This document shows positions 1 through 15,920 of a stretch of 64,000 bases of DNA, one piece after another. The stretch's first letter is position 1. Each line of letters opens with the position of its first letter. The stretch is from an uncultured Pseudomonadota bacterium (GTDB lineage Bacteria > Oederibacteriota > Muellerivitia > Muellerivitales > Muellerivitaceae), in contig CAWJKT010000009.1 of assembly GCA_963843375.1 (NCBI GenBank), positions 256,001-320,000 of the forward strand, read 5' to 3'. The position numbers and the translations under genes were made by a program. Below the pieces are notes generated by a model. That model made no database searches, was not told the DNA's origin, and saw only the letters and a list, made by a program, of their open reading frames with translations.

Positions 1-2
1 GC

Positions 3-425
3 TTCGCTAATCCAGGAAGGGATGCCCAAATCCTTGAGGACGCCGCAAAGGAAACAGAGTCGAAATACGCGCGGATGGATATCACTTGGGGTGAGGTTCA
101 TCGATTCCGACGTGGCAAATTTGACTTTCCAGCAAACGGCGGATCGCCTAATTTGGGAATCTTTCGTTCTGTTTGGTATGACATGGATAAGGACGGTAAA
201 TACCTCGCTAATGGAGGCGATAGTTACATTGAGGCCATTGATTTTTCAAAACCATTGAAGGCTAGTGTTTTGTTGGCCTATGGGAATTCAAGCGATCCTG
301 TTTCTCCCCATTATGGGGACCAATTGGAATTAGATTCAAAAAAAGAACTTCGACCCGTCTGGTTTTATCGCCAGGATGCTGAAGCTCACACAGTCGAGAA
401 GTCAGTGATTCCGGGAGTTGAATGA
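3..425 (+). CDS. C-terminal part of penicillin acylase / AHL acylase (Ntn-hydrolase) family protein, 5' truncated by window
   Basis: Frame open from base 3; WGEVHRFRRG, GGDSY..IDFS and YGNSSDPVSPHYGDQLEL match the acylase beta-subunit C-terminus. Confidence 0.8.
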   Translation, partial: FANPGRDAQILEDAAKETESKYARMDITWGEVHRFRRGKFDFPANGGSPNLGIFRSVWYDMDKDGKYLANGGDSYIEAIDFSKPLKASVLLAYGNSSDPVSPHYGDQLELDSKKELRPVWFYRQDAEAHTVEKSVIPGVE

Positions 426-444
426 GAAAATAGGGGGCATGGCT

Positions 445-563
445 TGTCCACGACGGGGACCCCTAAACCCTGAGTGGTTCGAGGGCCTCACCATCCGCGC
501 TCAAAGGGTCGATGAACTCAGGGCAAATTATAGGTCGTCCAATCTGGGAACCCGTCGTGGACA
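445..563. repeat. Cassette-boundary site 1, long form (half site, REP-like insert, full site at 536-563)
   Basis: TGTCCACGACGGGGACCC at 445; CGTCCAATCTG-GGAACC-CGTCGTGGACA at 536. Confidence 0.9.
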
Positions 564-648
564 AACCATTTGGGGCCTATCAACTGATTTTAGACGGGTT
601 TTCGTTTTGAGGTTTTATGAAATTTATAGAGAGTGTATAATGATTCCC

Positions 649-855
649 ATGAAGACCAAGAAAAACGTCTTAACACTTATCAAAAAAATCGAGGCCCTTC
701 CGGCCGACAAGATCAACGAGGTTGAGGATTTCGTAGAGTTCTTGGGTCACAAGGGCTCCGACAGGCAATTGACAAGGGCCGCCTCCAAACTTTCCGAAAG
801 GTCGTTTGCCAAGGTCTGGGATAATCCCGAAGATGCCATCTACGACAAGCTATGA
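649..855 (+). CDS. Antitoxin (DUF2281-like)
   Basis: IEALPADKINEVEDFVEFL...VWDNPEDAIYDKL; overlaps the downstream PemK-like toxin. Confidence 0.75.
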   Translation: MKTKKNVLTLIKKIEALPADKINEVEDFVEFLGHKGSDRQLTRAASKLSERSFAKVWDNPEDAIYDKL

Positions 856-1183
856 TTTCGGGGATGTTCTCCTAGTCCCTTTCCCATTCTCCAACCAAAC
901 TGCCGTTAAGAAACGCCCTGCTGTTGTCGTCAGTTCAAGCACCTACAACCTTTCTCGTCCTGACCTGATTATCCTGGCCCTTAGCAGCCAACCAGCAACT
1001 TCAAATGTGTTTGGGGGAACCAGCCTTTCCCACTGGAAAGGGGCAGGACTTTTGAAGCCTTCAGTTTTCAAGCCCATATTGGCCACGATTGAAAAGAGTT
1101 TGGTCATTCAAAAGCTGGGACGTCTTCATGCTAGCGATCAAAAGACCCTCCAACAGATATTAAAAACAGTTATTCAGGTTTAA
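833..1183 (+). CDS. PemK/MazF family toxin
   Basis: GDVLLVPFPFSNQ..KKRPAVVVS motif. Confidence 0.9.
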   Translation: MPSTTSYDFGDVLLVPFPFSNQTAVKKRPAVVVSSSTYNLSRPDLIILALSSQPATSNVFGGTSLSHWKGAGLLKPSVFKPILATIEKSLVIQKLGRLHASDQKTLQQILKTVIQV

Positions 1184-1200
1184 CTTATTGCCTCTAAACC

Positions 1201-1228
1201 TGTCCAACCTGGGGACCCGGATTGGACG
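1201..1228. repeat. Cassette-boundary site 2 (B-type arms)
   Basis: TGTCCAACCTG-GGGACC-CGGATTGGACG. Confidence 0.85.
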
Positions 1229-1323
1229 GTGTTTTGAGGCCGCCGATTCAACCTTTGGTGTTTGAAGGATTCTTCTTTAGTGATATCATAATGTCATAAG
1301 TGTTATCACTTTGGAGGTCCCCT

Positions 1324-1569
1324 ATGGTTCGTACTCAAATTCAATTGACCAAAAAGCAAACCACCTCGTTGAAAAGAATCGCCCAGGAGAGGCATATCTC
1401 CATGGCCGAAGCCATCCGCCAAGGCGTTGATTTATTCCTAAAGAATGGGATCATCAGTCCTGAGGAGCGCCGGAAACGGGCCATTGCCATTTCAGGGAAA
1501 TTTCATTCCAAGCACACCGACCTTTCCATCCATCACGACAAGTATTTGACTGAAGACTACGCCAAGTGA
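1324..1569 (+). CDS. CopG/RHH-type antitoxin
   Basis: MVRTQIQLT...SMAEAIRQGVD...HHDKYL; GGAGG RBS; 4-bp overlap with PIN gene. Confidence 0.85.
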   Translation: MVRTQIQLTKKQTTSLKRIAQERHISMAEAIRQGVDLFLKNGIISPEERRKRAIAISGKFHSKHTDLSIHHDKYLTEDYAK

Positions 1570-1964
1570 CCACTTTCATTGACACGTCTTTTTTCATCGC
1601 TCTTTTAACGAAAGAAGACCGCTTCCACGCGAAAGCTGATCAAGCTTGGCGATCTTTACTTGAATCGGACGACAACCTGGTTTCCACCAATTACACGCTT
1701 TTAGAGACGTTCTCCCTGATCCAAAACCGCTTGGGTTTGGAAGCTGTTACCGATTTTCAAAGGGATGTTGTGCCGCTTCTATCTTTGGAATGGGTTGATG
1801 AAAACTGTCATGAAGCGGGACTTGCCGCCGTGTTGACCGCCAAGCGAAGGAATTTGAGCCTCGTGGACTGCGTCAGCTTCGAAGTTATGCGGAGGAACGG
1901 AGTTAAGAATGTCCTTACCTTTGACAAGCATTTTGGAGAACATGGATTTCATTGTTTGCCATAA
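1566..1964 (+). CDS. vapC: VapC PIN-domain toxin
   Basis: FIDTSFFIAL...SLVDCVSFEVM...LTFDKHF. Confidence 0.9.
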   Translation: MTTFIDTSFFIALLTKEDRFHAKADQAWRSLLESDDNLVSTNYTLLETFSLIQNRLGLEAVTDFQRDVVPLLSLEWVDENCHEAGLAAVLTAKRRNLSLVDCVSFEVMRRNGVKNVLTFDKHFGEHGFHCLP

Positions 1965-1990
1965 AAGTTAAATGAATTGTTGGTATCTGC

Positions 1991-2018
1991 TGTCCACGAC
2001 GGGGAGGTGTAGTGGACA
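1991..2018. repeat. Cassette-boundary site 3
   Basis: TGTCCACGACG-GGGAGG-TGTAGTGGACA. Confidence 0.85.
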
Positions 2019-2108
2019 AGGGGTTTCCCCGGCCGACAAGCCATTTACTTGACGGTCCCTTTTCCAATGCATATAATTAATGCATATAGTTAATATGCAT
2101 CCCAGGAG

Positions 2109-2321
2109 ATGAAAATGCGGACCACCCTTGAACTTTCCAACCATTTGATCAAAGAACTCATGTCAGTGGAGAAATGGGCCTCCAAAACCCAGGCCATTGA
2201 GGCGGCCATCGACGATTTCGTCCGCCGGAAGAGACTGGATAAACTTATTTCCGCCAGGGGACGCTTGAAGGTGAAAGACGTTTCCTCCGAATTGCGGAAG
2301 ATGGAACTTCATGGCCGCTGA
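2109..2321 (+). CDS. vapB: VapB-type antitoxin
   Basis: MRTTLEL...SKTQAIEAAI; AGGAG RBS; overlaps PIN gene. Confidence 0.8.
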   Translation: MKMRTTLELSNHLIKELMSVEKWASKTQAIEAAIDDFVRRKRLDKLISARGRLKVKDVSSELRKMELHGR

Positions 2322-2700
2322 GATCCTGATTGACACATCGGTTTGGATCGACTATTTCCGCAAGCCGGACAGTGAAACCGGGGACAAGATCGTCAAACAT
2401 TTGAAACGCGGTTCCATATCTACTTGCGGAGTCGTCGTTTTTGAGGTCTTGCAGGGGGCGGCGGACCAAGAAGAGTTTTCTTTCCTGGAAGAGAACCTAA
2501 AAGGCCTGCATTTTCTCGAGGCAAACGCAGAGGCGTTTTTTGAGGCGGGGAAGGTTTCCTACGATTTGCGCAAGCATGGTATTACGCTCCCGTTAAGTGA
2601 CATTCTTATAGGCACTTTAGCCATGTCAAACCATCAAACGATTTGGACCAAGGACCAACATTTCAAAAAAATGAAAGGACTCCATCATCAGTTTTTTTAA
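2311..2700 (+). CDS. vapC: VapC PIN-domain toxin
   Basis: ILIDTSVWIDYFR...LSDILIG...WTKDQHF. Confidence 0.9.
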   Translation: MAAEILIDTSVWIDYFRKPDSETGDKIVKHLKRGSISTCGVVVFEVLQGAADQEEFSFLEENLKGLHFLEANAEAFFEAGKVSYDLRKHGITLPLSDILIGTLAMSNHQTIWTKDQHFKKMKGLHHQFF

Positions 2701-2709
2701 TTAGGCCTT

Positions 2710-2737
2710 TGTCCACGGCGGGGACCCGTCGTGGACA
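2710..2737. repeat. Cassette-boundary site 4
   Basis: TGTCCACGGCG-GGGACC-CGTCGTGGACA. Confidence 0.95.
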
Positions 2738-2809
2738 GCCAGTTCCACAATATTCACATTCTTGCGAGACCAAATCATTGATGGTATAACAGTTATATAT
2801 GGAGCCTAG

Positions 2810-3088
2810 ATGCGGTTTAAGTTCAATAGCAAAAAGAGTAATAGCCTCCGCCGGAACCGGGCACGCGGTATTGGTTTCGAGGAAGCTCAAAGGCTATGGG
2901 AAAGCCCTTACTATCTTGATCAACGTTCGGATTTACCCGAACAATGGCGGGCCATCGGTTGGGTTGTTGAAAGGCTCTATACCGTGATCTACGAAGAAAG
3001 ATCAGATCGCGATGGAGAGTATCTGCATCTTGTTACGCTGTGGAAGTCCACGAAGGAGGAGAGGAAGTTATATGAAAAGCACACATAA
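2810..3088 (+). CDS. brnT: BrnT family toxin
   Basis: F.FNSKKS...RGIGFEEAQRLW...WKSTKEERKLYE. Confidence 0.8.
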   Translation: MRFKFNSKKSNSLRRNRARGIGFEEAQRLWESPYYLDQRSDLPEQWRAIGWVVERLYTVIYEERSDRDGEYLHLVTLWKSTKEERKLYEKHT

Positions 3089-3356
3089 GGCAAAAACGGT
3101 TCCAACGGCGGAGCAAATAGCCCAAATGGTCGATAAGGGGGAGGACATCTCCAAACATTTCACGAACCACGGAAAAATGATGCCGGCCATCCGACGGGTC
3201 AATGTGGATTTCGCGGAAAACATGCTGCGGGAATTGGACAGTTTAGTCCGTGAGATGAACGTGAGCCGCCAGGCGGTCATTAAATCAATCCTTCGCCAGG
3301 GATTGGATCAGCATTATTTGGCTAAGAAGAAACGTCCCCACCTGACGGCTCGTTAA
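3072..3356 (+). CDS. BrnA/CopG-like antitoxin
   Basis: DKGEDISKHF...RRVNVDF...LD....MNVSRQAVIK, C-terminal RHH. Confidence 0.8.
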   Translation: MKSTHKAKTVPTAEQIAQMVDKGEDISKHFTNHGKMMPAIRRVNVDFAENMLRELDSLVREMNVSRQAVIKSILRQGLDQHYLAKKKRPHLTAR

Positions 3357-3370
3357 TCATTTAAACCAGC

Positions 3371-3398
3371 TGTCCACGACTGGGACCCGTCGTGGACA
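3371..3398. repeat. Cassette-boundary site 5
   Basis: TGTCCACGACT-GGGACC-CGTCGTGGACA. Confidence 0.95.
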
Positions 3399-3444
3399 GG
3401 GCAAACCATTGCGTTGTAACTATACTGTAGGGTATACTAAAAAC

Positions 3445-3716
3445 ATGCTCGTCATTTGGGATCCCCAGAAAGCCATTTCCAATCAAAAAATCACGGGGTC
3501 TCATTTGAAGAGGCTCAATCCGTATTGGAATCCGACGTTCAATTGGTGTTGGAGGATAGTGAACACCACGAACAAAGATTCATCGTGCTTGGGTATTCAA
3601 AGAAACTAAACCTATTGGTGGTGGTTTACGCTTACCGGGAAATGGATGTCATCCGGATCATCTCGGCCAGAAAAGCCACACGAAAGGAACGGGAAAACTA
3701 TGAAAAAAGAATATGA
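3445..3716 (+). pseudogene. brnT: BrnT family toxin with a frameshift in an A6 run (about 3485-3490)
   Basis: MLVIWDPQKAISNQK in one frame; HGVSFEEAQ...IRIISARKATRKERENYE in the next. Confidence 0.8.
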
Positions 3717-3957
3717 TTTTTCTAAAGCGAAGGTCCATAAAGGCCCTCTTTTAGCTTCCAAAGGTTCTAAGATTCAGAAAACCTTCCGGTTGGATGAGTC
3801 TGTTTACCATTGGCTTATCGAGGAAGGAAAAAAACAAGGAATCCCTTACCAAACTCTCATGAACTCCATTTTAAAGCGTTCAATGTCCGATAATTCAACC
3901 CTCGAAGAACGCGTTCGTAAAATCGAGCATAAATTAGGCCTGAAAAAAACTGGCTGA
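3700..3957 (+). CDS. brnA: BrnA antitoxin
   Basis: MKKEYDFSKA...FRLD...GIPYQTLMNSIL. Confidence 0.85.
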   Translation: MKKEYDFSKAKVHKGPLLASKGSKIQKTFRLDESVYHWLIEEGKKQGIPYQTLMNSILKRSMSDNSTLEERVRKIEHKLGLKKTG

Positions 3958-3995
3958 TTTCCCTGGACGAATTAGTTTTTGTAAATCGAAGGCCT

Positions 3996-4023
3996 CGTCC
4001 ACGACGGAGACCCGTCGTGGACA
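3996..4023. repeat. Cassette-boundary site 6
   Basis: CGTCCACGACG-GAGACC-CGTCGTGGACA. Confidence 0.95.
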
Positions 4024-4275
4024 ATAAATGCTTCAATAATTTAAATAAGTTTAAATTGCATGGTTTGTTTTAAAGGGCTGGGGGGGATTAACCGGAGCGG
4101 ATTGGTCGCGGGCCCAAAATGGAAAATGGAGACTGGGCCCGTTTTTATTGAATAAAATCACCTTTTAATTTGTTGGCTAATTTCCTTGACTGTCACCTTT
4201 TTTGCTAATAAGATTCCCCCCAGTTAAATGGTTTCCCATGCTTTTCCCCTCCCCATATCATGCCAAGGTGGTCCC

Positions 4276-5541
4276 ATGAGATTTCGAATCTTAGGATTAT
4301 TTTCCCTTTTGGTGGGAATGACTTTTTTAACCCTCGGTTGCCCATCCAAGTCCAACAGCCCCTCCGGCCCTACCGCTCCCGCGCCGACTAATACGCCCGC
4401 CGTAACATCCACGCCTACCAACACCGCGACCATTACGTCTTCTTCCACCCCTACTGGAACACCCACCAAAACCGGCACCCCAACCCTTACTGGAACACCC
4501 ACCAACACAGCCACTGCCAGCCCCACCGCCACGATCACCCCGACACCCACGATCACCGCGACCGCCACGATCACCAATACACCGACTGATTCCGCTACTT
4601 CCACCCAAACCGGAACGTCCACTGACACGGCCACAGTCTCACCCACCGCCACGGTCACCAGTACCCCAACCAACAGCCTAAGCCCCACCCCGACGGGTAC
4701 GCCGACCGATAGCCCCAGTCCCACTCCGACCGGCACACCGACCAATACCTTCCAATTCACGCCCACGGCCACGCCTAGCGCCACCACTACCGAAACCCCC
4801 AGTTTGACTCCGACCAGCAGCCCCACACCAACTCCCAACTGCACGGGTTCCTATTCCATATCCGGAAACGTGGATTACACGGGCTCGACGGTTTCGGGCA
4901 ACAGCGTGGCGGTGCTTATCATTTCACAACCCGACCTTGGCGGCGGCAGCGGTGATGGTTGTAACCCATTCTCCTCCGTCCTCGGAACCACGCCTGGGAG
5001 CTATTCCTACAACATCTCCACTATTCCCTCGGGCAGTTTTTACGTTGTTGGGGTTTACGGAACATTCGGAAGCAACGGACCCAACCTGGGGGATTACGTT
5101 GGGGACTACGGCAACGATTGTCCCCTCACGGGTTCCACCTTGGTGGCCCTCTCCAGCGGCAATCCCAGCGCGAGCAATGTCGGCGTGACCTTCGGCAACA
5201 CTTGGACGCTTTGGGGCATCAACGCGACCGTCAACTACAGCGGATCACAAACCAACGGTGAAATCTATGTCGGGCTCTTTTCCGCGGTCAATGTTGGCGC
5301 CGGAACTTACACCCAAATTACGAATACCGGCGTCAATTCTTCGGGCCAGACAAAAACCCTCATCGATCAAATCAATAGCTGTGGCTCGACGGGCGCGTCC
5401 GTTTACGTGATTGGATGGTACGGCAGCAATCCCAACGGGCCGAACGCGGGGGACAATTACGTTGAGTTCTCCACCACCGAGGTGAACAACCCAACGACGA
5501 CGACAACCGTTAATATCAGCAGCTCCGCGACTTGGCCATAA
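4276..5541 (+). CDS. Surface lipoprotein with long Thr/Pro/Ser linker and two related beta-rich C-terminal domains
   Basis: Hydrophobic signal ending LTLGC; about 160 aa T/P/S tract; [18 protein letters not shown] versus [20 protein letters not shown]. Confidence 0.75.
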
Positions 5542-5580
5542 GATTGGCCAAGTTTTTTGGGGACTAACGCCTATGCCGAC

Positions 5581-5608
5581 AAAGCCCCGCCTCTGGCGGG
5601 GCTTTTTT
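5581..5608 (+). terminator. Rho-independent terminator
   Basis: AAAGCCCCGCC-TCT-GGCGGGGCTTTTTT. Confidence 0.9.
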
Positions 5609-5805
5609 GTCTTCATGGAAGAAGGACCGGCAAGGGTGGGGAATAATATTTGAACACCAAATCCGGAATCATCACCGAATAGAAAACCCTCAAAAGCACT
5701 TCCAAAAGATCGAATTTTGGCCGTCTATCCCGCTTTTATCGAAAGGGCTAATTTGCCCCAGGTTCTTTACGCCTCATTCGCTGAATAGTGAGGTGAAGAA
5801 AGGAC

Positions 5806-5833
5806 TGTCCACGACGGGTCCCCGTCGTGGACA
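5806..5833. repeat. Cassette-boundary site 7, inverted orientation
   Basis: TGTCCACGACG-GGTCCC-CGTCGTGGACA; spacer is the reverse complement of GGGACC. Confidence 0.95.
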
Positions 5834-5882
5834 GGGGAAATTTTGTTTAGTGAAGTCTGATTTTATTTTTTGGAGAAGAAAA

Positions 5883-6485
5883 TTGTCTTATCGAATAATA
5901 CAGCCACCATTTACGCTAAAATTCAAGGAAATGCCAAAAACTGAATTGAAAGCCTATTTTGATTGGTTTGTGTCTCAAATCCCTGAAAGATTATCTGTAT
6001 TGGAATCTTCGGTGAATGAAACAAAAGGATTTGAAGATTGGTCGGCTAATTATTCTATATCTTCATTATCTTCATTAAAAAAATTAGGAAAATGGTTTGA
6101 AACTAAAGCCAATACACGGACAAGAACCAAACAAGAAATGGAGAAAATTAGAGGTAATTTCAATTTTCCTACTGAGATTTCAGATCAAGAACTGACGAAT
6201 GAAACTTTTTCAATAGCAATTGATATTGGGATGTATTTTGCAGAGGTCTTGAGGAAAAAGCATAAAAATTTGCAATGGAACTTTATAACGAAAGGGCGAA
6301 AAGACTGGATTGATTATGGCCAACCTATTTTGATTGGGTTTGACATTATTGGTCTGAATCCAGTTCATATTATGGTTACATTGGCATATGGATTTGTAAA
6401 AAAGAGTAAGTCGGGGGAAAGATTAAGTGAACTCTTTTCAATTTGGTCCGGGAAAGCCAAGAAAAGAGCGAAGGGTCCAAATTAA
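5883..6485 (+). CDS. Hypothetical protein (AT-rich cassette)
   Basis: TTG start after GGAGAAG; ORF fills the interval between sites 7 and 8. Confidence 0.65.
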   Translation: MSYRIIQPPFTLKFKEMPKTELKAYFDWFVSQIPERLSVLESSVNETKGFEDWSANYSISSLSSLKKLGKWFETKANTRTRTKQEMEKIRGNFNFPTEISDQELTNETFSIAIDIGMYFAEVLRKKHKNLQWNFITKGRKDWIDYGQPILIGFDIIGLNPVHIMVTLAYGFVKKSKSGERLSELFSIWSGKAKKRAKGPN

Positions 6486-6505
6486 CCTTTTTGTGATGAA
6501 TCGGT

Positions 6506-6533
6506 TGTCCACGGCGGGGACCCGTCGTGGACA
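6506..6533. repeat. Cassette-boundary site 8
   Basis: TGTCCACGGCG-GGGACC-CGTCGTGGACA. Confidence 0.95.
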
Positions 6534-6564
6534 ATGGAAACCTGGATTTGATTTCTATATCAAC

Positions 6565-6972
6565 TTACATCCAACCTGTCCGCCATTGTTGGCGCGATAG
6601 CCACACAAAGATCAGGATGATCAGCGGCGCCACCACATGCATTACGGGTTCGCCGCCGTGAAGAAGGTATGAAGCCGATGCGCCCAACAGGTCAAAGGTA
6701 AAACCCGCATAAGCCCATTCTTTGAGGGTGCGGAATTTTTTACTGCCGAAAAGAACCGCAATACAGCCGAGAATCTTGGCCACTCCCAAAATAGTACAAA
6801 GGTAAGCGGGGTAACCCAAGGCGGTAATCCCTTGAACATTCTCCGGTGCAGCCATCAGCATCATCACTCCACCCGATCCCATGGCTGAAACCACCAAGAG
6901 CGTCTCGATCCAATAGAATATCTTCGCCATCGTCATGTATTTCGCTTTCATTTCCGCTACGTTCTTCGCCAT
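6565..6972 (-). CDS. DoxX-like membrane protein
   Basis: LGYPAYL..ILGVAKILG...LKEWAYAGFTFDL. Confidence 0.85.
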   Translation of the reverse strand: MAKNVAEMKAKYMTMAKIFYWIETLLVVSAMGSGGVMMLMAAPENVQGITALGYPAYLCTILGVAKILGCIAVLFGSKKFRTLKEWAYAGFTFDLLGASASYLLHGGEPVMHVVAPLIILIFVWLSRQQWRTGWM

Positions 6973-7000
6973 TTCACTTCTCCTTTGTTTTGATTCCTGC

Positions 7001-7474
7001 TTAAACTTTATTCACAAACGACTCGAACTTTTTAAGCTGATGATTCCAGGCCAGGTCCGAATCCAGCTGTTTGCGGAAGGTCTTGGCGTTCTCCCCAAAC
7101 TTTTCCAAATTCCGATGCTCCAGCTTGACCCAGGTTTTATCTTTCCCCTCGGATACAAAAGTGATTTCCACCTCGGTCGCGAAAGAAGGATCCAATTGAA
7201 AAGAGGCGGTGAGGTGCCACGCTAAAAGAATTCGATTCGGCTGCTCCCAGGCCAGCACCGTGGCCCAGTCACCCCGGGTGCCGTCTTCGGCTATTCCATA
7301 AAAACGGCCGTTCACCCTTGTCTCCAGAACCGCTTGTTTCAGTTGGGATTTGCCAACGCGGTATTCCCGGGGATACCAAGCGTCGATATTCTCCGTAAAG
7401 GCCGTGAAAGCCTCCAACAGGGGAATATTCACAAAAACCTGCTTCCGAATCGGTTCGATCATTGAGTCGGTCAT
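7001..7474 (-). CDS. SRPBCC/AHSA1-like protein
   Basis: AF.AFTE.I..W.P...VLAWEQPNRILLAW...TEVEITF...LEHRN. Confidence 0.85.
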   Translation of the reverse strand: MTDSMIEPIRKQVFVNIPLLEAFTAFTENIDAWYPREYRVGKSQLKQAVLETRVNGRFYGIAEDGTRGDWATVLAWEQPNRILLAWHLTASFQLDPSFATEVEITFVSEGKDKTWVKLEHRNLEKFGENAKTFRKQLDSDLAWNHQLKKFESFVNKV

Positions 7475-7800
7475 GGTTTTTCTTTCATTTTTTTATTTTT
7501 CTCCACGTATTCCTTGAACGCTCCCAAAGACTTGTCCCAAAAACCGTCCAAATAGTCCCTCATGGTTTGAACTCCCTTGGGGTCCACCTGATACAGTCTT
7601 CGGGTGCCCCGCTGTTCTACCAACACCAACCCCGCTTCTTTCAACACCTTCAGATGTTGTGAAACCGCAGGTCTGGAAACATGCAAGCCTTCGCTTAGCT
7701 CCACCACGGCTAACGGACGCTTAGCTAGGCGCTCAAATAACTCTCGCCGGGTGGGATCACCTAAGGCCTGAAATGCTTTCGCTATAGTTGGGTTAGCCAT
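7471..7800 (-). CDS. ArsR/SmtB family transcriptional regulator
   Basis: FQALGDPTRR...VSRPAVSQHLKVLKEAGLV. Confidence 0.9.
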   Translation of the reverse strand: MANPTIAKAFQALGDPTRRELFERLAKRPLAVVELSEGLHVSRPAVSQHLKVLKEAGLVLVEQRGTRRLYQVDPKGVQTMRDYLDGFWDKSLGAFKEYVEKNKKMKEKP

Positions 7801-7807
7801 ATCAACC

Positions 7808-7823
7808 GTAAGTATATACTTAC
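7808..7823. promoter_or_regulatory. Probable ArsR operator
   Basis: Perfect palindrome GTAAGTATATACTTAC just upstream of the ArsR start. Confidence 0.6.
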
Positions 7824-7938
7824 CGATATGTCGATTGTCAAGATTCAATTATTGGAAGGGAAAGGTTGGAAATTAGACGGGAGTAAATAACATTTAAACG
7901 TGAGCTGGCCGTTACAATTGTAACGAAATGTAACTGGA

Positions 7939-7966
7939 TGTCCACGACGGGGACCCATCGTGGACA
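7939..7966. repeat. Cassette-boundary site 9
   Basis: TGTCCACGACG-GGGACC-CATCGTGGACA. Confidence 0.95.
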
Positions 7967-8076
7967 GAGAATAGTTTTGCAAAGAGCATGGACAAGTGGG
8001 ATTGGGGCAGGAAGTTTCGAAAGGAATCGTAGAATTAAAACGGAAAAATATACCGAGGATGGTCGATTTGGACGTT

Positions 8077-8664
8077 CTAAAGCCCTAAGCCTTGAAGAAA
8101 GGCTTCTGATTCACGCTCGAACTGTTCTCGTATGTATGAAATGAGGGCCATACGCCAAACACCCTGCAAGTAAGTAATGATGACCTTGGTAATTGTGCCG
8201 GTGTCATAACTTTTAGGAAGACGCCCTGCTTTCTTATCTTCATTGATCTTGTCTTCGATCAGTTTTTGAGTTTGATTTATCCTGGTAATAATAGCTTTTC
8301 TTAATTCGTTATCAGCCATAACGTCTTCGGAAAGCATCCCAGCGAACATGCAAATATTAGAAGGGCATTTGGGATCATCGAGACTGTCAAACATGGCGCT
8401 TAGCATGGCCCGCATCCCAAGACTTGTACTCGGGGCTGATGTCAGGGCAAGGCTTCTTTTTTTGCCTTCGATCTCCCCATACCTCTTCAAACATTCGATA
8501 TAGAGGCGCTTTTTGCTTTTGATGGTATTGTAAAAGGAACCTTCCCCGATCTTCATCGCCTTCAGAAGGTCTCTTAGCGATGCACCAGAGTATCCGTCAC
8601 GCCAAAAGACGCGCATCGCTTGATCCACTGCCTTATCGTAATCAAACTCCACTTTTCTAGCCAT
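8077..8664 (-). CDS. TetR/AcrR family regulator
   Basis: MARKVEFD...AMRVFWRDGYSGASLRDL...GSFYN. Confidence 0.9.
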   Translation of the reverse strand: MARKVEFDYDKAVDQAMRVFWRDGYSGASLRDLLKAMKIGEGSFYNTIKSKKRLYIECLKRYGEIEGKKRSLALTSAPSTSLGMRAMLSAMFDSLDDPKCPSNICMFAGMLSEDVMADNELRKAIITRINQTQKLIEDKINEDKKAGRLPKSYDTGTITKVIITYLQGVWRMALISYIREQFERESEAFLQGLGL

Positions 8665-8745
8665 GTCTCATTTTACCTCTGCGAAATATCTGAAGCAATC
8701 TATTTGTAGCAAATGTGACAATATCATTTGACTGCCGTGCCATTA

Positions 8746-8767
8746 TTCTGTAGCATGTGCTATAGAA
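8746..8767. promoter_or_regulatory. Probable TetR operator
   Basis: TTCTGTAGCA-TG-TGCTATAGAA inverted repeat in the divergent intergenic region. Confidence 0.55.
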
Positions 8768-8812
8768 TTTAAGCGGAGATATTTCCCACGATGTTGTGGT
8801 TAGGAGACGAAA

Positions 8813-9706
8813 ATGAACGAAAGTATATTGATAACAGGAGCAAATATTGGGCTTGGGAAAGAAACCGCCCGACAGTTAGCCCTGAAAAAAGAAACAAAAA
8901 AGGTAATTCTTTTTTGCAGAAATCAAGAAAAAGCCGAGGCAGCAAAAAAGGACCTTGAGGAGAAAACGGGAAAAAAGATTTTTGAAATTATTATTGGGGA
9001 TGTTTCGGATGCGAATTCTGTAAGAAAAGCAGTAGAAAAAATAAAGGACCCTATTGATGCCGTCATTTTAAACGCAGGTGGAATGGTTGGGAAAACTGCT
9101 GCGCAAATCACACCCTCTGGCATGAATAATTTGGCCGCGACTAATATTTTAGGTCATGTGGTTCTAGTGGATGAGCTTCTAAAACAAGATAAGTTAAAAA
9201 AAGTAGTACTATTTGTAAGTGCGGAAGCTGTACCGGGAGTAAAGCCTCTCGGAATGAAACCAGTTTCAATGAAGACTTCCTCTGTGGATGAGTTTGCTGC
9301 GGTTCTTGATGGTTCATTTTTTGGTAAAAAGTTCGATGTAACCCAAGCATACGGATACGTTAAATATGTAGGAACGATGTGGACGTTATCAATGGCAAGA
9401 AAATATCCTGATCTCAAATTTGTTGTTATGAGTCCCGGCAACACAAAGGGAACTCTGGCACCGGATAACTTGCCCCAGCCTATGAGATTTATGTTGAAGT
9501 ACGTAATGATGCCTATTGTGTTTCCATTGATGGGTGGAATGGTGCACGAGATAGAGGTAGGTGTAAAACGCCTCGTCGATGGCATTTCGGATGAGCGATA
9601 TAAAAGTGGCGTTTTTTATGCGAGTAAAGAGGGTAAGCTATCGGGGGACGTGGTTGACCAGAGCACGTTTTTTCACTGCTTTGAAAAATACTACATTTCA
9701 AGATAA
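8813..9706 (+). CDS. Short-chain dehydrogenase/reductase (true end may be 9743 if a T run is mis-called)
   Basis: ITGANIGLGKETA, LNAG, YGYVK motifs. Confidence 0.85.
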   Translation: MNESILITGANIGLGKETARQLALKKETKKVILFCRNQEKAEAAKKDLEEKTGKKIFEIIIGDVSDANSVRKAVEKIKDPIDAVILNAGGMVGKTAAQITPSGMNNLAATNILGHVVLVDELLKQDKLKKVVLFVSAEAVPGVKPLGMKPVSMKTSSVDEFAAVLDGSFFGKKFDVTQAYGYVKYVGTMWTLSMARKYPDLKFVVMSPGNTKGTLAPDNLPQPMRFMLKYVMMPIVFPLMGGMVHEIEVGVKRLVDGISDERYKSGVFYASKEGKLSGDVVDQSTFFHCFEKYYISR

Positions 9707-9745
9707 CGCTGATAAAGCAATTCACCGGAATATTGTGGCCTAGCG

Positions 9746-10384
9746 ATGAAAAAAGTGTTGGGTGAGCTAACTTGGGCCGCTTCTTATGTTTTTCTTGTCC
9801 TGGGATTCCGGGCTTGTCTTCATGCAGAAACGTCAACAAGTGAGGAATTGCTGGCTACCTATCCCCCCGCACAGTTTAAATTGGATTTCAAGGATGATGG
9901 GGAGCAGGATACGCTGACATTGACCTGCAAAAAGGTCAAAGATTATTCGGTGGATCCTGATACGAAAGAGAAAATCTCGGAGAAAAAGTTTGTTTGGTAT
10001 CAATTTCACATGACCATTGTTTCGCCAAACCATGAAACCCTCTGGGATGATACCTATTCAATTAAAGACGAGGATTACAGCGGGCTTTTTGAAAACTTCG
10101 ATACCCCCTTCCTAACGCCAGCGGTTTATATAAAAAAATATTTTTCAGTGAAATTCAACCACATTGTAAATTGGAAAATAAGTAAAGATGAAATCGATGA
10201 AGATTTAATTAAACAAAAAATCAAAGACACGAAAGTGAAGGTTCGGGTGGAAGATGTTGAAAAAGAGATTCTTACTGGCAAGCATACTGTCGTATTTTAC
10301 CGAGGTGACTGGGCGGTGGACTTGAGGCAGGCGGTGTATTCAAAAAAGCTTCGTAGTGCGGTTGGCTTAGCATGCCCTTATTAA
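9746..10384 (+). CDS. Secreted hypothetical protein
   Basis: Signal-like N-terminus; stop 9 bp before site 10. Confidence 0.6.
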   Translation: MKKVLGELTWAASYVFLVLGFRACLHAETSTSEELLATYPPAQFKLDFKDDGEQDTLTLTCKKVKDYSVDPDTKEKISEKKFVWYQFHMTIVSPNHETLWDDTYSIKDEDYSGLFENFDTPFLTPAVYIKKYFSVKFNHIVNWKISKDEIDEDLIKQKIKDTKVKVRVEDVEKEILTGKHTVVFYRGDWAVDLRQAVYSKKLRSAVGLACPY

Positions 10385-10393
10385 GGCTACCCT

Positions 10394-10421
10394 TGTCCAC
10401 GGCGGGGAGCCTTCGTGGACA
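10394..10421. repeat. Cassette-boundary site 10
   Basis: TGTCCACGGCG-GGGAGC-CTTCGTGGACA. Confidence 0.9.
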
Positions 10422-10535
10422 AGGAAATAAGGCAATAAACGGATAAATGAATATCACCCTTTTAATAGTGAATTGGATAATTGGCCCGTTTGGAATACAA
10501 TCTGAATAAGCTAATGTAAGCAAAGGGGAACGGTC

Positions 10536-10769
10536 ATGAGTCTCGCCGTCAAAGTACCTGTGGACCTTGAAAATCTTATCCAACAGCTTTCCGTGAAAGA
10601 CAAAATCAAGCTGGCCCACGAGCTCGAAAGGCAGACCCGGCGCGAACGTTGGACCCCCCTTCTCAACCGCATCCAAAAACGGACGGCCAAAAATCCGGTC
10701 ACTGATAAAGAAATAACTGCGATTGTCAAAGAAGCCAACCGGGAATTACATGGCAAAGGCCGTCGTTGA
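10536..10769 (+). CDS. Putative antitoxin
   Basis: 77-aa ORF overlapping the PIN toxin; DKEITAIVKE C-terminus. Confidence 0.65.
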   Translation: MSLAVKVPVDLENLIQQLSVKDKIKLAHELERQTRRERWTPLLNRIQKRTAKNPVTDKEITAIVKEANRELHGKGRR

Positions 10770-11163
10770 TACCAATGTATTGATTGGTATTCTTCTCGGA
10801 AGCCATAATTGCCTGGCGGTGCGCGAGGCTTTCCTGGATGGCCTTTTTGACATCCTCATTTCACCTGAACTCGCCGCCGAGTTCATCATCACCTGCCAAA
10901 AACCAAAACTTTCCAAACTCATTCATCCTGGTGATGTCGCGGACACGATGGAGCTTTTAAAAAGCGATGCGGATTGGGTTGCTCCAAAAGTTAAAATCTT
11001 CGCAATCCGTGACCCCAAGGACAATCCCGTATTGGAATGCGTTGTCGCAGGGAAGGCCGATTTCATCATTTCGGGCGACAAAGACCTACTCGATCTCAAA
11101 TCTTTCCGGAAAATTAAAATTATTAATCCTCGGCAATTTTTAATGCTTTTGAAAAGGGCTTAA
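10750..11163 (+). CDS. PIN-domain putative toxin
   Basis: AVVDTNVLI...RDPKDNPVLECVVAGKADFIISGDKDLL. Confidence 0.9.
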   Translation: MAKAVVDTNVLIGILLGSHNCLAVREAFLDGLFDILISPELAAEFIITCQKPKLSKLIHPGDVADTMELLKSDADWVAPKVKIFAIRDPKDNPVLECVVAGKADFIISGDKDLLDLKSFRKIKIINPRQFLMLLKRA

Positions 11164-11171
11164 CTCCGAGC

Positions 11172-11199
11172 TGTCCACGACGGGGACCCCAAAGGAACA
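11172..11199. repeat. Cassette-boundary site 11 (right arm degenerate)
   Basis: TGTCCACGACG-GGGACC-CCAAAGGAACA. Confidence 0.8.
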
Positions 11200-11265
11200 A
11201 TAGTTTAAAGGCAAAAGGGATAGTAATTTGTTTGATGCAAATTTGGTATCATGTATAATACCAAT

Positions 11266-11694
11266 ATGAAACCATTGAGAATTGTACTGGACACCAACAT
11301 TCTCGTCTCCGCTTTAAGGTCGCGCCTAGGCGCTTCGCACCAGTTATTATTGGCGGTGGGCGACAAACGGCTTCAACTTCAACTATCAGTGGCGTTGTTA
11401 TTGGAATATGAGGCTGCCATTAAAAATCCCAATAGCGGCATCAACCTTTCGGCGGATGAAAAAGACGATATCCTGGATTATCTCTGCGGTGAAGCGAAGC
11501 ACTGTAAAGTGCATTACCTTTGGAGACCTTGCTTGAAAGACCCGGGAGATGACATGGTCCTGGAAGTGGCAGTTGCTTCGGAAGCAAGTGGGATTGTCAC
11601 TTTTAACAGGCGGGATTTTAAAGGGATTGAGGCTTGGGGCCTAAAGATTTATACACCCCAGGAAATTTTGAAGATTTTAGGAGGCCATAAATGA
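11266..11694 (+). CDS. PIN-domain putative toxin
   Basis: IVLDTNILVSALRS..GAS...WRPCLKDPGDDMVLEVA...IVTFNRRDF. Confidence 0.9.
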   Translation: MKPLRIVLDTNILVSALRSRLGASHQLLLAVGDKRLQLQLSVALLLEYEAAIKNPNSGINLSADEKDDILDYLCGEAKHCKVHYLWRPCLKDPGDDMVLEVAVASEASGIVTFNRRDFKGIEAWGLKIYTPQEILKILGGHK

Positions 11695-11930
11695 GTGCCA
11701 TTAGCTTGAGATTACCGAATAACCTTCACCGTTCCGTCCGGGAATTGGCGGGAAAGGAACATGTTTCGATCAATCAAATGATCACCTTGGCCCTTGCGGA
11801 AAAAGTCTCAGCCTTGATGGCGGATGAATATTTGGGCCGCCGGGCCAAGCGTGGAAGCAAGGCGAAATTCCTCAAGGCGATGGGGCATGTTGAAAAAATC
11901 GAGCCAGAGGCCAAAGACAAGTTACGGTGA
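11691..11930 (+). CDS. RHH/HicB-like antitoxin
   Basis: ISLRLPNNLH...SINQMITLALAEKVSAL; ATGA overlap. Confidence 0.8.
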   Translation: MSAISLRLPNNLHRSVRELAGKEHVSINQMITLALAEKVSALMADEYLGRRAKRGSKAKFLKAMGHVEKIEPEAKDKLR

Positions 11931-11986
11931 CCTTCTGAGGTTTCCTTGAATTGGTTAGGCGACAACTAAAGAATGATCTGGAAGGT

Positions 11987-12014
11987 TGTCCACGACGGGG
12001 ACCCGGGGTGGACA
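11987..12014. repeat. Cassette-boundary site 12
   Basis: TGTCCACGACG-GGGACC-CGGGGTGGACA. Confidence 0.9.
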
Positions 12015-12085
12015 ATATCAATTTGGGAAACGTTGTAAACATTTTGGTTCAAATCATTAATCCAAAAACAGGGAGGTATAAGAGC

Positions 12086-12763
12086 ATGAAAAATTATTTG
12101 AAAAACCTGGTGCTTTTGTTCTTGTTGTTGGTCCGCGTTGCGGGGGCCCAATCCGGCAACCTGCAACCAAATGATTTTGAAAATTCCGCAAAAGAACAAC
12201 TAGTGTCCCTAAAGGAAACCGTTTCAAGTTTGACCAATGAAAAAGGAGATCTCAGCGACAGGCGCGGTGATTTGACTCTACGGATATTAAAGGAATATTT
12301 GAATGACAAGGCGGATGAAGCGACATCCCAAAAGAACACACAAGGAGCCGCTTATTACCAAAAAGAGAGCTTGGACCTTCAATCATTGCATGACGATATT
12401 TATGCCCATAGCATTAAAATTAGGGACCTCAACCATCAGATGGAAAACTTGCGTGTCGGTTTATACACCGAAGTCATTGATAGATTTACCCAGAGTTTTG
12501 AAAATGATAAAAACTCCAAAGCCGTCTCAATCCTCAAGGAATGCAAAGGTTTCCTTGAAAAGGCTCAATCCATTGTGGAAAAGAAATTTGAGCTGGCCCA
12601 AAATGCCACCGAGGTTAAGAAGAATGGTAATTTCCAAACCGTACCCGATATCCGCAAGCAGATCGATGAACTTCAAAAACAATACGATAAGCTCATTTCG
12701 GACACCCAGGTGAAAATGAAACAAATTGGGTTGGATAAAAACAATCCTCTACTCAATATCTAA
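12086..12763 (+). CDS. Secreted helical/coiled-coil hypothetical protein
   Basis: GGGAGG RBS; signal peptide ending AGA-Q. Confidence 0.65.
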   Translation: MKNYLKNLVLLFLLLVRVAGAQSGNLQPNDFENSAKEQLVSLKETVSSLTNEKGDLSDRRGDLTLRILKEYLNDKADEATSQKNTQGAAYYQKESLDLQSLHDDIYAHSIKIRDLNHQMENLRVGLYTEVIDRFTQSFENDKNSKAVSILKECKGFLEKAQSIVEKKFELAQNATEVKKNGNFQTVPDIRKQIDELQKQYDKLISDTQVKMKQIGLDKNNPLLNI

Positions 12764-12906
12764 TCTCAATGTCGGTCGGTGATCGGGGAGGACATTTTTT
12801 GATTCTCATCCCAGGCTTCGGTCCGTTTCTCTCTTTTCCCCGTCCCCCAAAATCCCTAGTCAGAATCGCAAGTAGCGCCTTTTGAAATGTTGCAATGCAA
12901 GTATCT

Positions 12907-12991
12907 TGTCCACGGCGGGGACCCCGTTCGGCTCCCTTTGGTCGCTCAGGGCAAATTATAAGTCGTCCAATCTGGGGACCCTGATTGGACA
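12907..12991. repeat. Cassette-boundary site 13, long form (full site at 12964-12991)
   Basis: TGTCCACGGCGGGGACCC, insert, CGTCCAATCTG-GGGACC-CTGATTGGACA. Confidence 0.9.
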
Positions 12992-13056
12992 GATGAGAAG
13001 TAAGAAATATCTCGCTTGGATTGAATTTAAAGGGATGAATCTAAAAGAGGCCTCCT

Positions 13057-13971
13057 GTGTTTAAGTTATCAATGATATCAATTTTTATTTTTGCCGCACA
13101 AATCACGTTCGGCGGAGAACTTCAAGCAATAGTTTATTGTAGTGGTACTAATGAGGATGATTTGGGGTTGTGTAGTATCTCGCCCGAAGGTACAAAGCAC
13201 TCCTGCTTAAATGATCGAGATCATTCACTTTTAAATAATCATTATTCCTCTCCAGCTTGGAAACCCAAAAGCAAAGAACTTGTGGTCGAATACGCAAAAC
13301 CTGATGGGGATCGAATACTGGAATTAATTGATGGCCTTGGGAATAAGATTCGCGAAGTTAACAAATCCTTTAATTTTATGAGACCCGTTTGGAGCCCCGA
13401 TGGGAGCCACATTTATGCGTTGAAGTATGGGATAGGGCCACAAATAGGACAATGGGATTCAAATGGGATGAACTTTAAATTTGTACCCATTGTGGGCGCG
13501 CCTAACAACACGAACGCCCCTAATAGCCAAGGTGATTTTCAAATGATTTCTTTCAGCCCTTCAGGGAAAAGCGTCGCTTTGCTCAACTACGGGTTCAAAC
13601 AGATCATTGTAGCTAGTGTGAAAGAACAACAATTTGTCGCTCAAAAAGAACTTCCGACGAATTTTAATTACGTGGCCCAGTCGGCATGGCTTGATGAGAG
13701 TCATTTGCTATTTGTCGGGAGGTTAAATCCGGGGGCTGCCAATCTTTGGGAACTGAACATTGGGGATGGTTCTACGCGTTTAGTGGAAATTCCTAACCTT
13801 TCGCTTCAGGATTACTTTGCCCTCTCGCCGGATCGAAAATCAGTTGTTGTTTGCGCGACAGAAAAAAATCAAAATTTGTGTTGGAGTCTTTGGGAGTATT
13901 TGTTGGGTTCTCCCGCGGCCAAGAGACTTACAACAAGAAATCTGGATTCCGGCCCTACCTGGGGGGACTGA
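13057..13971 (+). CDS. Secreted TolB-like (PD40) beta-propeller protein
   Basis: Repeated PAWKP / PVWSPDG / SFSPSGK / LSPDRK motifs. Confidence 0.7.
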   Translation: MFKLSMISIFIFAAQITFGGELQAIVYCSGTNEDDLGLCSISPEGTKHSCLNDRDHSLLNNHYSSPAWKPKSKELVVEYAKPDGDRILELIDGLGNKIREVNKSFNFMRPVWSPDGSHIYALKYGIGPQIGQWDSNGMNFKFVPIVGAPNNTNAPNSQGDFQMISFSPSGKSVALLNYGFKQIIVASVKEQQFVAQKELPTNFNYVAQSAWLDESHLLFVGRLNPGAANLWELNIGDGSTRLVEIPNLSLQDYFALSPDRKSVVVCATEKNQNLCWSLWEYLLGSPAAKRLTTRNLDSGPTWGD

Positions 13972-13991
13972 GTATTAACGGTTGCAAAGCT

Positions 13992-14076
13992 TGTCCACGA
14001 CGGCGACCCCGTTCGACTCGCTAAGCTCGCTCAGGGCAAATGATAGGTCGTCCAATCTGGGGACCCGGAGTGGACA
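13992..14076. repeat. Cassette-boundary site 14, long form (full site at 14049-14076)
   Basis: TGTCCACGACGGCGACCC, insert, CGTCCAATCTG-GGGACC-CGGAGTGGACA. Confidence 0.9.
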
Positions 14077-14115
14077 GAAGAAAAAAGGATTGAATTTCTT
14101 GTTTAATGTCGCGAG

Positions 14116-15045
14116 GTGTTGATGCAATTCTTCAGAATAGATAAAAAAATCATCCTTTTAGTGGTTTATGCACTTCTGCAAGCCATTGGGATGAACCATG
14201 GTGTTTGGGCAGATCCGGCAGGCGTGTCCACTTCAAAAATTCAAAATGACGATCCCTGCGAAGACTTTATTCGCCAATGGATTGACGGGAAAAATAAAAC
14301 CATTCCAATCAAATTACGTGAGAGGATTCAAAAATATTTAGGGAAGGAAGTTCTCTATCCTCCGCCCATTTCCACAAAAGAGGCTCCCTTTTTTCTTCCG
14401 AAACCTAATGAAATACGGGCTAGTTTTAAAATGGTGCCCTATGCTGATGCAGAATACCAATATAAGATCGATTCTGAATTTATAGCCGCGGGGGACATGG
14501 TTGAAACGAGATATGGGAAATCACCCGTCACCTTCATGCTACATAACGTCTTTTCTTCATTCATCCAAAACCATACTTACTTCCTGGTGAATTATGAGAA
14601 AGACGATTCGGAAACGGACTCAACCGAATATTACAACCTCTATTTGCAAACATCCCCAAAAGCAGTAAGTGAATTAGTTCACGGCGCTTCCCATATTGAC
14701 TTTTTCACTCTTGGAAAAAATTCACCCATATTTGTGGTGGAGGAAAGCCAAACATTTGATGCACATTTCAAAGGTGGATTTTATCAGGTAAGGGGAGATG
14801 GAACCTTAAAAGAGTTGCAAAACTTGGAAGCCTTTAAAGTAAGTTGGGATATCGCTGATTTTGAGGGAAATGGTAATTCGGAACTCATGGTAAGTGAGGA
14901 GATGGACGTCCCCAAACGACCGACTGATTGTAAGGGACATGGAACCTGTTTTTTTCGCGAAATGAAGATCAAAAAATGGGACGGCGTCCAATACGATACG
15001 ATCGCAGATTATTTCTACATTGAACCCTGTGATGTTGTTAGATAG
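14116..15045 (+). CDS. Secreted hypothetical protein
   Basis: Signal-like N-terminus; DFEGNGNSEL loop; fills the cassette. Confidence 0.6.
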   Translation: MLMQFFRIDKKIILLVVYALLQAIGMNHGVWADPAGVSTSKIQNDDPCEDFIRQWIDGKNKTIPIKLRERIQKYLGKEVLYPPPISTKEAPFFLPKPNEIRASFKMVPYADAEYQYKIDSEFIAAGDMVETRYGKSPVTFMLHNVFSSFIQNHTYFLVNYEKDDSETDSTEYYNLYLQTSPKAVSELVHGASHIDFFTLGKNSPIFVVEESQTFDAHFKGGFYQVRGDGTLKELQNLEAFKVSWDIADFEGNGNSELMVSEEMDVPKRPTDCKGHGTCFFREMKIKKWDGVQYDTIADYFYIEPCDVVR

Positions 15046-15059
15046 AAATAAATTAAAGT

Positions 15060-15087
15060 TGTCCACGGCGGGGACCTGTCGTGGACA
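15060..15087. repeat. Cassette-boundary site 15
   Basis: TGTCCACGGCG-GGGACC-TGTCGTGGACA. Confidence 0.95.
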
Positions 15088-15185
15088 TGCAAAATGGGGC
15101 TAGACCTGACATTTCACCGGATTGCCACGGGGCCCCGGGTTTGATATAAGTATGGTAAGTAGTGCCATACTATTGGGGAGGCGAA

Positions 15186-15383
15186 ATGAAAATTACAACC
15201 CATATTGACGAAGCTCTCTTACGGCAGGCGAAACGCAAAACGGGTATCGTTTCTCAACGGGAAATCCTGGAAACCGGCTTACGTAACTTATTGGCGGATA
15301 TCCAAAGAAAAAGTTTCGTGAAGGATTTTGATAAGTTCCGCCTTGATCTCACACTCAATTCACTCAAAGGATCCAGGGGTTGA
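15186..15383 (+). CDS. vapB: VapB-type antitoxin
   Basis: MKITTHIDEALL.QA...GI.S.RE; GGAGG RBS. Confidence 0.8.
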   Translation: MKITTHIDEALLRQAKRKTGIVSQREILETGLRNLLADIQRKSFVKDFDKFRLDLTLNSLKGSRG

Positions 15384-15814: not shown

Positions 15815-15817
15815 AGT

Positions 15818-15845
15818 TGTCCATGGCGGGGAGGCGAAATGAAAC
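15818..15845. repeat. Cassette-boundary site 16 (terminal, left arm only)
   Basis: TGTCCATGGCG-GGGAGG followed by an unrelated right side. Confidence 0.7.
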
Positions 15846-15920
15846 ACTTTTGTTCTAGAGGTGTCTACCACCGGAAGCCTTCGAGTGAATTGCTGATCGA
15901 ACAAAAGGATTCGAAAAAAA

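Follow-up and report, generated by a model that had tools for sequence, protein, structure and literature searches.

A 28-bp palindrome that recurs in the analysed DNA (64,000 nucleotides, positions 256001–320000 of contig C9, hereafter the window) is, in the reading that we favour on balance, the joint of gene cassettes in a lineage-specific system of FCPU426 bacteria. The system is shared by the window's family and its sister family; it is integron-like without being an integron, and its recombinase would act from elsewhere in the genome. Comparison of related genomes supports the view that the sites are joints of mobile gene modules in a chromosomal array, because the island holding them is absent in relatives, its cassettes are reordered elsewhere, and homology ends at the sites. 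The coordinates of the sites, the cassettes and the associated elements are collected in Table 1.

Table 1. Sites, cassettes and associated elements (window positions unless a contig or locus is named)
Feature	Position	Strand	Remark
Part of 29.6-kb variable island	1–16161	+	contig C9:242543–272161; between sugar-transferase and NAD-epimerase genes
Half-site	445–472	+	left arm and centre only
Site, variant left arm	536–563	+	CAATCT type; "long form" together with half-site 445–472
Five successive toxin-antitoxin cassettes	806–3957	+	
MazF-like cassette	806–1183	+	
Site, both arms variant	1201–1228	+	centre kept
RHH + PIN cassette	1300–1964	+	
Site, variant right half	1991–2018	+	GGTGTAG type
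VapB + PIN cassette	2109–2700	+	
28-bp site of the initial annotation	2710–2737	+	1 mismatch to reference copy; 10 nt past stop of PIN-domain (VapC-like) ORF 2311–2700
BrnT-like + RHH cassette	2810–3356	+	
Site copy	3371–3398	+	
BrnT + BrnA cassette	3456–3957	+	
Site copy	3996–4023	+	
Sole inverted copy in window	5806–5833	-	perfect palindrome save central GA
Site copy	6506–6533	+	
DoxX_2/unknown/ArsR cassette	6565–7848	-	
Site copy	7939–7966	+	
TetR (minus strand) + SDR cassette	8077–9706		
Cassette with gene of no family	9746–10384		
Site copy	10394–10421	+	
PIN_3 cassette	10723–11163		
Site, degenerate right arm	11172–11199	+	AAAGGAACA type
PIN_3 + HicB-like cassette	11251–11930		
Site copy	11987–12014	+	
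Long form	12907–12991	+	left-half 12907–12934, 29 nt, full variant site 12964–12991; repeat family D7
Second long form	13992–14076	+	86% identical to 12905–12999
Site copy	15060–15087	+	
Last cassette, VapB + PIN	15162–15814	+	
Last, decayed copy	15818–15845	+	left arm and centre recognisable; distal array end
Intron-after-site loci	L016, L030, L031, L033, L050, L064, L065, L179, L210; own C9:252486, C18:59734	sense	
Truncated large serine recombinase	own C9:137163–138005; L014, L016, L020, L045, L073, L075, L177, L201		convergent on last array site

Sequence and symmetry of the site

A sequence check confirms the element at 2710–2737, far beyond chance expectation. With up to three mismatches to the consensus, nine places in the window (14 strand-rows) carry it, against 0.00 expected from 100 shuffles. 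A scan with the window's own perfect copy as reference and up to ten mismatches returns 20 rows, which all fall within 445–15889, whereas the backwards control returns no row. We read these rows as 15 full copies, three left-half copies (445, 12907 and 13992), one decayed terminal copy (15818) and one doubtful row (15862). The full and partial copies (15 and 4) are confined to 445–15845, and the same scan finds no copy in the other 48 kb. Across the 4.05-Mb assembly, 71 copies are found at up to seven mismatches versus one for the backwards control.

The initial annotation had assigned a length of 28 bp to every complete copy, and this is borne out: the motifs GTCCA and TGGAC are spaced by 16 in 47 cases, each other spacing from 4 to 120 occurs only 1–14 times, and two site-like exceptions have spacings of 15 and 18. 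Its parse into 11-bp arms around a 6-bp spacer is allowed by this length, but it is not the only one. The site is a near-perfect 13-2-13 palindrome, in which the inverted symmetry continues through the proposed spacer and the central GA alone is asymmetric; all 13 positions pair in 67 of 320 sites (71 from the own genome plus 249 non-redundant sites from related loci). With the length fixed at 28 bp and the symmetry reaching the central 2 bp, the two parses are indistinguishable, and 11-6-11 is therefore one possible parse rather than a unique one. The spacer GGGACC, described as constant, is indeed exact at 1201, 12964 and 14049 despite the variation of the arms, but it is exact in 11 of the 15 full window copies rather than in all of them. 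The 8-bp centre GGGGACCC is retained in 234 of the 320 sites.

The two arms are unequally conserved. Across the 320 sites, positions 1–18 carry 1.2–1.9 bits of information and positions 23–28 carry 1.5–1.8 bits, whereas positions 19–22 carry just 0.73–0.94 bits, though their mirror positions 7–10 are conserved. Six sites combine T at position 10 with A at position 19, against 35 and 55 that have only the first or only the second; compensatory change is found neither at this pair (Fisher p = 0.31) nor at 9/20 (p = 0.51), the arms vary independently, and mismatches are tolerated in a third of sites. The conserved sequence, the lack of compensation and the tolerated mismatches point to reading by a protein, and not to selection for pairing alone.

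Some copies depart from the simple form. The AAAGGAACA right-arm type is also found at array ends in two other loci (L016 and L045). Three long forms combine a half-site with a full variant site; in the first of these (445–563), about 90 nt form an inner part and, in the fold of 427–573, the outer arms pair across it, whereas the two other long forms are without such a part, and that at 12907–12991 folds without long-range pairing.

Cassettes, arrays and their movement

The sites of the genome are clustered in six to seven arrays on contigs C6, C9, C10 and C18. Neighbouring sites share their orientation in 50 pairs versus two opposite pairs, which makes them direct repeats, with a median spacing of 869 bp. 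An open reading frame of at least 55 codons ends on the same strand within 150 nt upstream of 65 of the 71 own sites, and within 40 nt of 37; frames converging from the other side, the control, number 47 and 16 at the same distances, a noisy comparison given that long open frames are common. Each unit comprises one or two genes plus the upstream region that belongs to them, closed by a site a few to some tens of bases past the stop codon.

Besides the toxin-antitoxin pairs listed in Table 1, several window genes between sites are without a family. Upstream of the window the same island carries Sel1, GNAT, MazF, AraC, malectin, NHL and SDR genes, and an array in G001, a genome of the same genus, holds HAD hydrolases, GNAT, an outer-membrane barrel, a LOG-like protein and an NHL protein; toxin-antitoxin pairs are thus only part of the cargo. 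In about 1 Mb around the sites there are 834 distinct ORFs of at least 100 aa, the largest cluster having seven members. One ORF of the window (4228–5538; 437 aa) has no family match and contains 18-bp-periodic repeats (D6 and D8), inside which the contigs of other samples break. In a lake-water metagenome, the summed depth of contigs over the SDR gene at 8813–9703 rises to as much as about 200, against 0–3 for its flanks, an excess that we attribute to close relatives of that one gene in other, abundant organisms.

We also note two features next to the arrays. The 240 bp past the last site (window 15922–16162) have a 78% identical copy 63 kb away, at C9:334666–334903. The same element of approximately 100 nt, with a T-tailed hairpin at its end, occurs after tRNA-Thr and again after tRNA-Phe (C6:271300–271100 and C15:35350–35480), and an array or lone site begins 320–540 bp beyond it.

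In place of the 29.6-kb island, G001, G018 and G005 have about 700, 540 and 110 bp, respectively. The empty spot in G001 and G005 contains a look-alike of the left arm and centre. The left end of the island joins the chromosomal left part to a cassette-type right arm, and its right end consists of a cassette-type left arm and centre followed by unrelated sequence. At this one locus, the ends thus form the pattern expected after insertion at a primary site, and such an insertion is possible. The empty chromosomal site looks like the T-arm of a tRNA, but a tRNA target was dropped because ARAGORN predicts none at that spot or anywhere in the window. A second island, inserted in G001 (21.4 kb) and absent from the own genome, is bordered by a half-site on neither side, so that arrays can also be carried within larger islands by some other route.

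Individual cassettes are shared as well. The window segments 2710–3399, 3371–4023 and 2068–2739 have 79–91% identical copies in other genomes, with alignments that end at the sites. Two of these cassettes occur in reversed order in locus L018, and two cassettes that are neighbours in the window sit in separate arrays in G001. Of the chromosomal dif-module-like array that the initial annotation had described, the mobile-module joints and the chromosomal array are thus supported, in view of the island's absence from relatives and the reordered cassettes, but the affiliation with dif and Xer is not supported.

Among 31 homologous cassette pairs, arm variants followed neither neighbour and gave no signal of a crossover point. 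In public sequencing runs, examined as Logan contigs, neither an excised circle nor a precise empty joint was seen in contig form. Two joints considered as excision (6532 to 7942 and 7966 to 11987) were discarded, resting on just 26 and 29 letters of the repeat itself. Loose contig ends in these runs fall at the edges of sites, at 2707/2737 and 5806/5835–5836, and the contigs of other samples diverge at the edges of the inverted copy; the loose end behind 2737 in sample X3, considered as a cassette swap, reads like the 5' end of a group II intron and is taken as an intron insertion at that site. Against the cassette-system reading it must be said that 28-bp repeats could support rare homologous exchange too.

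Were the cassettes to move by site-specific recombination, exchange between two direct sites would release a circle carrying one site, which could insert again into any of the remaining sites or into a stretch of chromosome that resembles one. The sequence of positions 1–18 and 23–28 would be recognised by a protein encoded elsewhere in the genome, the looser positions 19–22 would make one arm weaker, and strand exchange would take place at the conserved centre.

Candidate enzymes and alternative readings

The initial annotation had taken the sites for dif-like targets of one homomeric Xer-type recombinase, which here would be the clade's single such enzyme, and the array for a chromosomal dif-module-like one. 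We regard this as unlikely, if worth serious attention. In its favour, the 28-bp site allows an 11-6-11 parse with a conserved centre, and these genomes have a single Xer-family core gene. That of the own genome (C10:182366–183469), which lies in conserved synteny, scores 152.7 bits on the XerC model and 142 on the XerD model, below every Xer equivalog cut-off, and the nearest solved relatives of its product are XerA and XerD. Orthologues (E ≤ 1e-30) are present in 23 of the 24 family genomes and in the one genome of the sister family, and were not found at this threshold in 16 genomes of other families; this is the only recombinase gene found with the motif's distribution. Recombinase gene and motif do share their clade distribution, but all these genomes form one clade, and the match consequently amounts to a single event and not to independent co-occurrence. 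Moreover, G017, at 97% completeness, contains the gene yet yields no site when up to three mismatches are allowed.

The Xer-like gene has a palindrome of its own. Just upstream of its likely ATG, at C10:182388–182413 (locus L103:2388–2413), lies a perfect 28-bp 11-6-11 palindrome (TTTCATATAA, CTATAA, TTATATGAAA), which is the only copy in the assembly at up to three mismatches. A related ATAA-N6-TTAT palindrome is found in the same place in at least nine other family genomes, and this AT-rich element is probably the dif of the clade. It recalls the XerS/difSL type, a single-recombinase Xer system with its site beside the gene, in that one Xer-family gene has a single-copy 28-bp palindrome at its start. 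The cassette site, by contrast, shares neither arms nor spacer with it: six of 28 positions are identical in either orientation, which is chance level, and the G+C content is 68% for the cassette site and 11% for the host palindrome. The probable host dif is thus unlike the cassette site. GC skew of contig C10 around the gene is flat and uninformative. In 18 of 21 genomes (own C10:183605; loci L122–L141), a conserved AT-rich block is found 150–200 bp downstream of the Xer-like gene; it spans about 70 nt and its 5-nt centre is variable, with a second, diverged copy 24 kb further on (own C10:207330) and a weak, chance-level match in Rfam; it was considered as dif and dropped in favour of the perfect palindrome at the gene start.

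Elements known to exploit Xer copy the dif of their host. Membership of the cassette site in the Xer/dif class is not supported by two features compared in sequence, namely the likeness of its arms to the host dif and the alternation of orientation. Chromosomal dif-module islands that carry toxin-antitoxin modules do exist in Acinetobacter, where PMC12907356 draws the modules between alternating C/D and D/C sites with AT-rich arms that copy the host dif. The present arrays are like them in their 28-bp sites allowing an 11-6-11 parse, in their small modules, including many toxin-antitoxin pairs, and in their position in a chromosomal island, but their sites are GC-rich, unlike the host palindrome, and direct repeats. 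As the enzyme for the cassette sites, the clade's Xer-family recombinase is accordingly held as a minority candidate with a low probability, because its own site is unrelated despite the matching distribution. The surviving feature is the geometry (28 bp, a conserved centre, one arm strong and the other weak), which hints at the tyrosine recombinases as a whole.

A recombinase gene was not found in the 29.6-kb island, and the flanks of the arrays contain no recurrent gene family. Relatives of the 14 tyrosine recombinases of the genome lie near sites in one of 77 genome loci and in none of 113 metagenome loci. Six paralogous tyrosine integrases of about 368 aa (58–66% identity) are encoded on own contigs C6, C8, C9 and C11, most directly beside tRNA genes, and three of them lie 1.4–3.5 kb from lone degenerate sites; they were rejected as the specific enzyme, as such integrases are found in families without the motif too and every paralogue is paired with a tRNA of its own. 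A small HTH_17 gene stands ahead of each, and copies of a single IS21-like element flank three of the six. At C8:95063–98359, three tyrosine recombinase genes lie side by side in a "recombinase in trio" arrangement, and similar trios or pairs occur in G013, G015, G017 and G018. From C18:59880–59930 onward, about 27 consecutive T lead into DNA of much higher G+C content, which suggests a chimeric join; the recombinase and tRNA-Ser beyond it may come from another organism, and this recombinase was left out because it lies past a probable mis-join.

The sites are also targets of other mobile elements. Class C introns home after terminator hairpins. At the loci listed in Table 1, a group II intron lineage with a reverse transcriptase starts 1 nt after position 28, always in sense orientation; the intron 5' motif lies within 3 nt of 18 of the 320 sites, and the mirror arrangement occurs at none. 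An IS110-family element has landed inside the intron in some copies (L065, L040 and L037), and in three loci IS110-family genes lie at 130–150 bp from a site. Another group II intron lineage, with a reverse transcriptase 38% identical to that of the first, starts right after an 11-nt match to the left arm of the site (own C9:135155–137109; L022 and L048), and in the own genome it splits the site next to a truncated serine recombinase gene. Integron attC sites are likewise targeted, by group IIC-attC introns and IS1111-attC elements that insert in antisense orientation (PMC3001079). The parallel shows that the site is available in vivo as a hairpin or as a specific target, and it is silent on how the cassettes move.

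The palindrome could instead work at the 3' ends of genes as a hairpin or as a docking site for proteins, for example in stabilising RNA 3' ends, in termination without a tail or in insulation, with the shuffling due solely to homologous recombination across the repeats after DNA uptake, an explanation that we also consider improbable, though far from negligible. The position of the sites just past stop codons on the sense strand, their stable fold (-14.7 kcal/mol as DNA, z -5.2), the intron homing 1 nt past the hairpin in sense, the lack of a recombinase close by and the ends of the second island without half-sites all agree with it. However, the features of an intrinsic terminator, a GC-rich hairpin followed by a T run, are not those of the site: only the inverted copy at 5806 passes a terminator scan among the window's sites, the others failing because they have no T tail, and the flank downstream of the sites is A-rich. 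Ordinary T-tailed terminators do exist in this genome, for example at 5581–5605, and Rfam returns nothing at gathering scores in the window. In addition, the sequence is conserved across at least 16 genera without compensation while positions 19–22 are loose, which is the opposite of a structure-only element; the copies are restricted to variable islands rather than spread over all genes; and one island end is a hybrid of the chromosomal left part and a cassette-type right arm.

A serine recombinase crossing over at the central GA is very unlikely. A 13-2-13 palindrome with an asymmetric central dinucleotide is the geometry of resolvase and invertase crossover sites, and in 8–9 loci the last site of the array faces a convergent gene for a large serine recombinase, with a small extra palindrome between the gene's stop codon and the site. 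These site-adjacent copies, however, are 275–329 aa long and lack the C-terminal part, compared with open frames of 510–529 aa in full-length relatives. The family occurs in eight of the 24 family genomes, G018 holding a fragment only, and was not found in the site-rich genomes G005, G010, G021 and G023. Truncated at the arrays and found in a minority of the family genomes, it was rejected as the cassette enzyme. Least credible of all is a REP-type repeat spread by a RAYT (HUH Y1) transposase, since, although short GC-rich extragenic palindromes after genes, in tens of copies, recall REP and BIME elements, the cassette sites are clustered in islands rather than dispersed and bound mobile cassettes, and Y1_Tnp matches do not track the motif, being present in 11 of the 16 motif-less genomes of other families and not found in the site-rich G018, G023 and G000.

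Distribution and relation to integrons

An exact 26-mer of the site is found in 77 stretches of a species-genome collection, most of them titled candidate division FCPU426 and a few with other or no taxon labels, and in 119 metagenome stretches. Viral contigs gave no match, and a viral origin was rejected. Among 40 relatives, a 16-mer core is present in 20 of the 24 family genomes and in the single sister-family genome, whereas the 16 genomes searched from eight further families of the phylum gave no match.

Among known systems, integrons and CALINs, the latter being attC clusters without an integrase (Cury et al. 2016, PMC4889954), are the closest in architecture. The arrays consist of co-oriented cassettes of one or two genes, each closed by a palindromic site and mobile as a unit; many of these genes are of toxin-antitoxin type or of no known family, and the cassettes are common to several genomes in altered order. 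As in CALINs, the sites are very alike within the lineage and no integrase lies nearby, and parasitism by group II introns and IS110-family elements is a further likeness to integrons (PMC3001079). However, attC sites are described as having R and L boxes, an unpaired central spacer, extrahelical bases and a variable terminal structure (PMC4889954), and a near-perfect 28-bp site with a centre of 2–4 nt is too short to accommodate paired boxes, the unpaired spacer or the variable terminal part. None of 31 family genomes reaches the 265-bit cut-off of the integron integrase model TIGR02249, the best score being 84.5 bits, and there are several arrays per genome without an intI-attI platform. The intron, too, is inserted in sense at cassette sites, whereas it is antisense at attC (PMC3001079).

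It is possible, though we would put it below an even chance, that this is an independent invention of the integron principle, with a minimal 28-bp palindrome and a recombinase other than IntI: either the clade's single Xer-family enzyme acting on a second, unrelated site or a kind of protein not yet tied to cassette movement. Among open-access papers and bioRxiv, we found no published description of FCPU426 palindrome-bounded cassettes or of the motif. To our knowledge, the integron is regarded as the only system that bacteria dedicate to storing and rearranging single genes. Integron detection relies on IntI and attC models, and since neither hallmark is present here, current tools would miss these arrays.

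The same architecture, with tens of cassettes per genome, runs throughout a family of an uncultured soil and peat phylum and through the metagenome stretches noted above. That the site is unlike the host's own dif narrows the search for the enzyme and argues against simple hijacking of Xer. If the recombinase is found, cassette platforms would have arisen more than once, and the system would supply a very small (28 bp) natural recombination site.
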